DNA from: an uncultured Pseudomonadota bacterium
GTDB lineage: Bacteria; Babelota; Babeliae; Babelales; CAZZPM01
Length of the DNA: 42,655 nt
NCBI GenBank assembly: GCA_964655535.1
Contig: CAZZPM010000001.1
Location: 1-42,655 of the forward strand
Direction of reading: 5' to 3'
Part shown: in pieces, positions 33,419-33,751 of the stretch
Layout of the letters: each line of letters opens with the position of its first letter
Position numbering within the stretch: the stretch's first letter is position 1
Notes under the pieces: generated by a model
Databases searched by the model: none
Told to the model about the DNA's origin: nothing
Seen by the model: the letters and a program-made list of their open reading frames with translations, nothing else
Program-made: the position numbers and the translations under genes

Positions 33419-33471
33419 TGTTGATAAAGTGTTGATAAAGTGTTGATAACTTGTGGATAACTTGTTAATAA
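33419..33471 (-). repeat. Five head-to-tail DnaA-box-like 9-mers at exact 11-bp phasing
   Basis: TGTTGATAA at 33419, 33430 and 33441; TGTGGATAA at 33452; TGTTAATAA at 33463. The reverse complements are TTATCAACA x3, TTATCCACA and TTATTAACA. Confidence 0.75.
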
Positions 33472-33580
33472 CTTTTTTTAACCACTCAAAACATCGATCT
33501 GTAATAGATAAAAAAAATACATTTCAAAAACACATTTCAAAACATCGATCTAATCAATATAATTGGAAGTTGATATATTT

Positions 33581-33621
33581 TTGTCCACAAGTTATCAACA
33601 CTTGTCCACAAGTTATCAACA
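33581..33621 (+). repeat. Four DnaA-box-like 9-mers formed by a tandemly duplicated 21-bp unit
   Basis: TTGTCCACA at 33581, TTATCAACA at 33592, TTGTCCACA at 33602, TTATCAACA at 33613. Spacing is 11/10/11 bp, and orientation is opposite to the 33419-33471 array. Confidence 0.75.
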
Positions 33622-33679
33622 ATGTTTTAAAAGTAAATAGCATCGATCCAATCGACATTATGAGAATATTTTATATGAG

Positions 33680-33751
33680 TTATCCACAATTTACCCCTTC
33701 GCTTATTATTATTATATTATATATATATTATTAATAAAAATAATAATAATA
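33680..33751 (+). promoter_or_regulatory. Perfect DnaA box, short GC patch, (TTA)n trinucleotide run and 49-nt A/T-only tract (candidate unwinding module)
   Basis: TTATCCACA at 33680-33688, CCCCTTCGC at 33694-33702, TTA x4 at 33703-33714. Positions 33703-33751 contain only A and T and are followed by GCGCGCGGG. Confidence 0.5.

Follow-up and report, generated by a model that had tools for sequence, protein, structure and literature searches.

The stretch of DNA analysed here (the window) comprises positions 1 to 42,655 of contig CAZZPM010000001.1 in assembly GCA_964655535.1, a draft genome of an uncultured bacterium of the order Babelales that amounts to 978,567 bp in 105 contigs; the contig as a whole, designated C1, is 47.6 kb long. 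Between udg, which encodes a uracil-DNA glycosylase, and the gene pair nusA-infB lies a gap occupied by boxes for the initiator protein DnaA, set out as two opposed arrays and one lone box and followed by trinucleotide repeats and a tract composed solely of A and T (Table 1). The first-pass annotation of the window, made from the letters and a list of open reading frames (ORFs), had proposed this gap as a candidate chromosomal replication origin (oriC), and that proposal is now supported by the cumulative-skew minimum of the contig, by the sole internal skew flip in the assembly and by the conservation of the element at nusA in relatives.

Table 1. Features of the udg-nusA gap and of its flanks (positions are those of the window)
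Feature	Position	Strand	Description
udg, family-4-type uracil-DNA glycosylase	32768..33355	+	Pfam PF03167, E = 2.8e-27; left flank, points towards the origin
udg-nusA gap	33356-34133		778 bp, non-coding
Distal (left) DnaA-box array	33419..33471	-	five boxes, TGTKGATAA on the top strand, exact 11-bp step; TGTTGATAA at 33419, 33430 and 33441, TGTGGATAA at 33452 (perfect), TGTTAATAA at 33463 (2 mismatches)
Inter-array gap	33472..33580		109 bp; two exact copies of TCAAAACATCGATCT, 33486-33500 and 33537-33551
Proximal (right) DnaA-box array	33581..33621	+	four boxes, oriented like the lone box and against the left array; TTGTCCACA at 33581 and 33602, TTATCAACA at 33592 and 33613; steps 11, 10 and 11 bp
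Interspace, last array box to lone box	33622..33679		58 bp; 67 bp from box start to box start
Lone perfect DnaA box TTATCCACA	33680..33688	+	adjoins the unwinding element
Spacer ATTTACCCCTTCGC	33689..33702		14 bp, GC cluster, between lone box and trios
DnaA-trios	33703..33714	-	top strand TTA x4, i.e. 3'-AAT-5' x4 on the bottom strand
Candidate DNA-unwinding element	33703..33751		49 nt without G or C; imperfect palindrome TTATTATTATTA ... TAATAATAATA
GC-rich patch GCGCGCGGGATCGTATGCGAGAGTACGAGTGCGTAC	33752..33787		closes the A/T tract
nusA promoter/leader region	33788..34133	+	A/T-rich; only weak promoter-like matches
nusA and infB	34134..37722	+	nusA 34134-35231, infB 35296-37722; Pfam NusA_N/KH_5 and IF-2 domains; first right-arm genes, transcribed away from the origin

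The details on which the proposal rested are accurate. The five left-hand boxes placed 11 bp apart, the repeated pair in the opposite orientation (33581-33621) and the perfect box at 33680-33688 had all been given with correct coordinates and sequences, the 778-bp gap is indeed non-coding and lies between genes whose identities Pfam confirms, and the run without G or C at 33703-33751 is not only 49 nt long but exceeds every other A/T-only run in the draft of 978,567 bp. The right array relates to the left one as an inverted repeat (23 nt, 96% complementary). Besides the boxes, the gap carries an accessory motif, present twice between the arrays and a third time, as CATCGATCCAATCGAC at 33641-33656, in the interspace before the lone box.

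Nine of the boxes in 33419-33688 lie within one mismatch of TTATCCACA, and a tenth has two mismatches. Boxes with at most one mismatch occur genome-wide at 0.29 per kb, so that 0.078 would be expected in 270 bp against the nine observed, which corresponds to a Poisson probability of about 3e-16. It is the clustering that matters, as the box count of the window as a whole (19 against 13.4 expected) is not significant. The cluster is the sole dense one in the draft, with nine boxes per 300-bp window and three in the next-best windows. Those three-box windows, on contigs C47, C16 and C15, are not origin-like: they lie in or beside coding sequence, their boxes are unphased and no A/T tract accompanies them. 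Enrichment of GATC sites of the Dam/SeqA type was not found in the 1-kb region, which holds five, the density across the window being 4.3 per kb.

Strand asymmetry on contig C1

GC skew, taken in 2-kb windows, ranges from -0.08 to -0.20 between the start of the contig and about 33 kb; beyond 34 kb its values are +0.15 to +0.22, and it stays positive to the end of C1 at 47.6 kb; the cumulative minimum lies at about 33 kb. What had been an anecdotal impression of a plus strand C-rich to the left and G-rich to the right of the site is thereby borne out by measurement, as is the change in gene orientation noted along with it, for the genes do diverge there. The exception on the left arm is a block of plus-strand genes at 16-21 kb, where the skew is near zero. 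Among the 39 contigs longer than 8 kb, C1 alone shows an internal change of sign; the other 38 are uniform, with an absolute skew of about 0.1-0.2. The first-pass annotation had itself suggested looking for a skew minimum elsewhere or for a box cluster beside dnaA: the minimum is found at about 33 kb, and dnaA is accompanied by isolated boxes only.

The asymmetry was further resolved by gene strand. Plus-strand skew at third codon positions (GC3 skew) is -0.42 for the 17 minus-strand genes of the left arm and -0.24 for its six plus-strand genes, whereas on the right arm it is +0.34 for the four plus-strand genes (nusA +0.21, infB +0.38) and +0.14 for the single minus-strand gene. Its sign tracks the side of 33.7 kb and not the coding strand, and the asymmetry therefore follows the replication arm rather than transcription; the independence of skew from gene strand also holds genome-wide. 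Provided that the leading strand is G-rich, the skew pattern of C1 is the signature of fork divergence.

This result bears on a different account of the locus, in which the boxes mainly serve DnaA-dependent transcriptional control of nusA-infB or udg and the flip merely mirrors the divergent orientation of the genes. The account has some appeal, given that DnaA acts as a transcription factor in many bacteria (for example PMC13438810), that the element is situated upstream of nusA and that genes diverge at it. It is, however, difficult to reconcile with a GC3 skew that takes the sign of its arm also in genes encoded on the 'wrong' strand, which is not an effect of transcription or coding, with a flip that does not vanish when same-strand genes are compared across the site, and with one that persists for hundreds of kilobases in closed relatives. 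Ten phased boxes in two opposed arrays, together with trios and an A/T-only tract, also go far beyond the content of a promoter. Transcriptional control as the main role of the boxes is thus very improbable; a secondary regulatory effect of the origin on nusA expression is possible.

The block of plus-strand genes at 15135-21321 had been flagged as head-on to replication should the gap be an origin. The conflict is real but harmless, the block retaining the GC3 skew of the left arm (-0.24). It borders a rearrangement breakpoint at about 20.6 kb, defined by comparison with the same-genus genome G001.

A flip of skew may also mark an inversion breakpoint or an assembly junction, in which case the box cluster would be a coincidental repeat. 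The udg-cluster-nusA segment, however, is colinear with G001 from 20.6 to 46.3 kb, that is, across the site; dozens of separately made assemblies, some of them closed genomes of cultured species, show the element; and a chance cluster has the minute probability given above (~3e-16). These observations outweigh the facts that speak for an artefact, namely that the genome is a metagenome-assembled draft, that it is rearranged relative to the same-genus genome at about 20.6 kb and that contigs from public runs break in the arrays (loose ends at 33440, 33462 and 33601), and they leave this explanation extremely improbable. The freshwater-metagenome contigs that break in the arrays (X1 and X2) run on into unrelated sequence, with the same 30-mer in both orientations. 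Such breaks may stem from the inverted arrays, as a tangle of the assembly graph, or from a co-occurring strain in which a different gap separates the two arrays.

Taken together, the data indicate, with a probability that we put at roughly 0.9, that the udg-nusA gap is the single chromosomal oriC, dependent on DnaA, of this uncultured Dependentiae (TM6) bacterium. The features by which an oriC is commonly recognised coincide here: a cluster of DnaA boxes above background, an adjoining AT-rich unwinding element, a switch from minus to plus skew regardless of gene orientation and an intact dnaA in the genome. Several points nevertheless weigh against this assignment. Initiation at the site is a prediction from sequence, and the public-run contigs of the organism are fragmented (200-1,700 nt, at a word depth of about 2-5x). 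The genome is a draft of 105 contigs, 94% complete, and the missing part could hold a second box cluster. The gene-strand bias is weak, with only 55% of coding bases genome-wide on the G-rich strand, and the co-directional share is modest as well, at 64% within 10 kb of the site in 24 closed relatives. Equating the G-rich strand with the leading strand, as in other bacteria, follows a general polarity rule that is assumed to hold for this phylum; the orientation of rRNA operons was sought as an independent marker of polarity, and the draft contained no rRNA primer sites. Finally, udg (588 bp) and the block 15135-21321 run head-on to the leftward fork, and the origin of Babela massiliensis has been published next to dnaA (PMC4378268). 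With the origin fixed at the gap, a fragmented metagenome assembly gains replication-arm coordinates, which would explain local gene orientation and composition.

Conservation of the element upstream of nusA

A first sample of 30 relatives, whose genomes all measure about 1 Mb, was searched with NusA; two of them belong to the same genus and the rest represent about 20 further families of the order. Seven to eleven consensus boxes are present within 400 bp directly upstream of nusA in 25 of the 28 usable loci. By comparison, the 31 nusA loci of Desulfobacterota that served as negative controls (NusA identity 36-43%) carry no more than two boxes.

The layout recurs along with the boxes. In the relatives the distal array, oriented as here, consists of 4-5 boxes and the proximal array, oppositely oriented, of 3-4, the step being 11 bp in both; the inter-array gap measures about 98-133 bp in most of them and shows no general sequence conservation. 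From the proximal array, a step of 65-67 bp leads to the lone box in nearly all relatives; this box, perfect or with one mismatch, occupies the same relative position in almost all. A conserved protein site was sought in the 58-bp interspace and no order-wide motif emerged, its length alone being conserved. Beyond the lone box follow a spacer with a GC cluster, CTA/TTA repeats (3'-GAT/AAT-5'), an A/T-rich tract and then 160-510 bp to nusA. Comparable GC-rich stretches after the A/T tract are found in two same-genus relatives (L003 and L004), and the C-terminus of udg was also seen upstream of the box cluster in one relative (L023).

The unwinding module can be expressed as a strict pattern, consisting of a box with at most two mismatches, 11-17 bp and at least three (C/T)TA units. 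It occurs in 35 of 54 nusA-upstream regions, that of the present window included, and 28 of these 35 have a spacer of 13 or 14 bp. Elsewhere the pattern is nearly lacking: DNA of relatives amounting to 3.1 million strand-bases (1.57 Mb) yields only 29 occurrences, with about 24 true origin zones among those loci.

Two of the three box-poor exceptions retain the layout in variant words, TTATGAACA in G005 (L010) and TTATGCACC/TTATCAACC in G020 (L023); the latter pair is also used in G252, where the origin geometry is likewise kept. Such variant words suggest that boxes have co-evolved with domain IV of DnaA, and a fixed geometry filled with lineage-specific words (TTATGAACA, TTATGCACC) would provide a natural series for the study of DnaA/box co-evolution. 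In the third exception, G023 (L014), the box-spacer-trio module precedes nusA by 867 nt, and directly between the two lies an ORF (approximately 900-1330 of that locus) whose product of about 137 aa, judged by eye, resembles a stand-alone DnaA domain IV, the C-terminal DNA-binding domain; the full-length dnaA of this genome is located on another contig.

Position of dnaA and previously published origins

Origins that do not adjoin dnaA are well known, that of E. coli among them. The window had been described as lacking dnaA, and correctly so: the gene is located on contig C4, which makes the proposed origin a dnaA-unlinked one. It is full length (477 aa), with the Pfam domains DnaA_N, Bac_DnaA and Bac_DnaA_C corresponding to domains I, III and IV. 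The skew around it is uniformly negative, and the flanking DNA, taken to 4 kb in each direction, holds just three boxes, all of them isolated. Contig C4 has no skew flip, and no box cluster was found near dnaA. Contig geometry and skew signs imply a distance of at least about 44 kb between dnaA and the origin here.

Of the 261 species genomes available for the order, 27, representing 22 genera, consist of a single contig, and both dnaA and nusA were located in all 27. With skew read from the 20 kb around the 5' end of nusA, a minus-to-plus flip is present at that end in 25 of them; G054 has no flip at nusA and G059 only a weak one. An opposite-type flip lies roughly half a chromosome away in three genomes examined. 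One of the closed chromosomes, G018 (1,525,295 bp), was sampled over its full length and has exactly two flips, from minus to plus at 520 kb, the position of nusA, and from plus to minus near 1,265 kb. The distance between dnaA and nusA is 0.37-0.50 genome lengths in all 27 genomes, and in representatives of three families dnaA was found ahead of the skew-defined terminus by 86 kb (G018), about 96 kb (G037) and about 89 kb (G085).

A counter-example comes from the genus itself. In the draft G001, an inverted block homologous to C4, with dnaA in it, is found 22 kb to the left of the origin (contig C18, 20-39 kb), at a place where the present genome has other genes, including the head-on block 15135-21321. 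A terminus-proximal dnaA is therefore common, but not universal.

These comparisons also bear on the possibility that the cluster is a datA- or DARS-like locus that titrates or recycles DnaA, with the true origin elsewhere, for instance beside dnaA. A cluster of boxes away from dnaA is just what datA looks like in E. coli, and 6% of the draft is missing. Yet the cluster falls exactly on the only minus-to-plus skew flip in the assembly and adjoins a complete unwinding module, which a titration site would not need; there is no other box cluster in the genome, and the surroundings of dnaA have neither flip nor cluster. As the element is conserved order-wide at nusA and the flip in closed relatives is located at this element and not at dnaA, the relatives, too, argue against a datA/DARS-like site, which we regard as highly unlikely.

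The origin proposed here is almost certainly of the ordinary DnaA-dependent kind, as judged from its sequence elements, with a layout of unusual regularity. Throughout the order it keeps its place beside nusA, in most cases at a great distance from dnaA. For Dependentiae this yields a simple rule, according to which oriC is to be sought upstream of nusA and not beside dnaA. The terminus-proximal position of dnaA is unusual and apparently conserved, and it may bear on replication control in these polyploid parasites. That the whole order keeps its origin locked to the upstream region of nusA while dnaA is held near the opposite pole of the chromosome is a more far-reaching conjecture, and one that we consider doubtful. 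If the position of dnaA were selected rather than inherited, few genes would be duplicated later than dnaA, and its dosage would be uncoupled from initiation. It is tempting to speculate that this could help parasites to control, or deliberately relax, re-initiation during polyploid multiple-fission growth in their hosts.

Two origins have been published for members of the order. For Chromulinavorax destructans, which belongs to a different family, a presumptive origin was assigned to 651,641-652,233 from GC skew and the box TTATCCACA, according to the available passages of the paper (Deeg et al. 2019, PMC6561590). In G085 (1,174,272 bp), taken as this species, a cluster of eight boxes begins at 651,689 and nusA at about 652,111, some 420 bp further on, with a minus-to-plus flip. 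The nusA-upstream cluster coincides with the published interval, and the homologous locus is thus already in the literature as a putative origin. The evidence in those passages is GC skew and the box only; linkage to nusA, the arrays, the trios and the position of dnaA are absent from them.

The second case conflicts with the nusA pattern, although it concerns the same order and the same kind of evidence. The origin of Babela massiliensis was placed by GC skew 152 nt upstream of dnaA (Pagnier et al. 2015, PMC4378268). In G037, inferred to be this species (1,118,422 bp, 27.4% GC), dnaA starts near nt 153, and its region has no box cluster and no minus-to-plus flip. Such a flip is located at nusA near 652 kb, together with a typical origin of 4+3+1 boxes, a 14-bp spacer, CTA x4 and an A/T tract, and the cumulative G-C maximum, a terminus-type flip, is reached about 96 kb beyond dnaA. 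Should the usual polarity hold, with G the richer base on the leading strand, the published Babela origin is probably misplaced. Genome papers and tools that favour dnaA-adjacent candidates can misplace the origin, and the Babela assignment appears to be such a case. What is new here is the skew test in 27 closed genomes, the consistently terminus-proximal dnaA and the conflict with the Babela paper.

Predicted mechanism and relation to known origins

The arrangement of the elements suggests how initiation may proceed. ATP-DnaA, supplied by the dnaA on the other contig, would first occupy the consensus boxes at 33452 and 33680 and then fill the two opposed, 11-bp-phased arrays (33419-33471 and 33581-33621), forming two oligomers that would match the left and right halves of E. 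coli oriC. The lone box at 33680, the 14-bp GC-containing spacer and the TTA repeats would constitute a basal unwinding system (BUS). Anchored at the lone box, which by analogy would be equivalent to R1 of E. coli or box 7 of B. subtilis, a DnaA filament would extend onto the bottom-strand trios (3'-AAT-5') and open the 49-nt A/T-only tract, the GC-rich patch at 33752-33787 probably limiting the spread of unwinding. A bend is probable in the 58-bp interspace, with one or the other of two HU-family proteins as its most likely cause, and would enable the oligomer on the four proximal boxes to hold the unwound strand. Helicases would then be loaded and two forks would set off, the left one across the minus-strand genes and the right one across nusA-infB. 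We infer the binding of DnaA, the order of assembly, the bending and the exact point of unwinding from the likeness to known systems. The genes for the two HU/IHF-family proteins (PF00216) are located at C20:15611-15877 and C21:6975-7244. One of them has an open frame of 145 aa, longer than a typical HU.

The BUS was described for B. subtilis and is predicted in 85% of bacterial origins; the consensus of its trios is 3'-GAT-5', with a central A, and its commonest spacer is 13 bp (PMC8287927). The general pattern of a box within 16 bp of at least three central-A trinucleotides takes the form TTATCCACA, 14 bp and TTA x4 in the present element. With the B. subtilis type (Richardson et al., Pelliciari et al. 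2021, PMC8287927) it shares the box, the 13-14-bp spacer with a GC cluster, three or more central-A trios and the AT tract. The differences concern the number of boxes, a single one here and a tandem pair (box 6/7) in B. subtilis; the trios, all four of which read 3'-AAT-5' here, relatives mixing GAT and AAT; the A/T tract, palindromic here and ending at its far side in a mirrored TAATAATAATA and a GC patch; and the setting, the present origin not being situated between dnaA and dnaN.

The overall architecture, by contrast, resembles that of E. coli oriC, which has two opposed arrays, the one proximal to the DNA-unwinding element (DUE) being in the orientation of the DUE-adjacent box (PMC4285127). 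The E. coli elements comprise the DUE, R1, an interspace bound by IHF/HU, the left array R5M/tau2/I1/I2, R2, the right array C3/C2/I3/C1 and R4. Here, too, the proximal array shares the orientation of the lone box and the distal array is opposite. In both origins the unwinding element is at one end and is followed by a lone high-affinity box beside the DUE, in the same orientation relative to it, a box-free interspace, an array in the orientation of the lone box and a second array in the opposite one (PMC4285127, PMC10325909). The proposed role of the interspace has its counterparts in R1-R5M of E. coli and box1-box2 of T. maritima, where IHF or HU stabilises a bend and DnaA of the array holds the unwound strand (PMC10325909). 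Likewise, neither the present origin nor that of E. coli adjoins dnaA. The R1 side of E. coli follows the box-spacer-trio grammar as well: the 46-mer that we take to represent R1 in its orientation, a single-copy sequence of the chromosome in 4,833 E. coli genomes, reads TTATCCACA, 13 bp and CTA in its reverse complement.

The present element departs from the E. coli origin in several respects. Its array sites are near-consensus and not degenerate and of low affinity, the gap of about 110 bp between the arrays holds no middle R2-like box, and the interspace of 58 bp has no recognisable IHF consensus. GATC is not enriched, so the signature of Dam/SeqA-type sequestration is missing, and the neighbours are udg and nusA in place of gidA and mioC. 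The combination of E. coli-style opposed arrays with a B. subtilis-style box-spacer-trio module, at fixed spacings, makes this type of origin attractive for in vitro tests of geometry.

As regards the remaining content of the gap, no tRNA was detected in it and there was no credible Rfam match to other RNA genes. An ORF of 93 aa (33453-33734) was dropped as a gene, having no Pfam match and spanning the non-coding repeats. Among the closed relatives, the word AACATCGAT was counted 7 times in 10.5 kb of origin zones against 16 times in 1.56 Mb, an enrichment of about 65-fold; for CGATYCARTCG the figure is about 220-fold. The motif was selected post hoc, and both words are confined to a subset of lineages, Babela included. 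Judged from these sequences, the accessory motif may be a binding site for some origin-associated protein.

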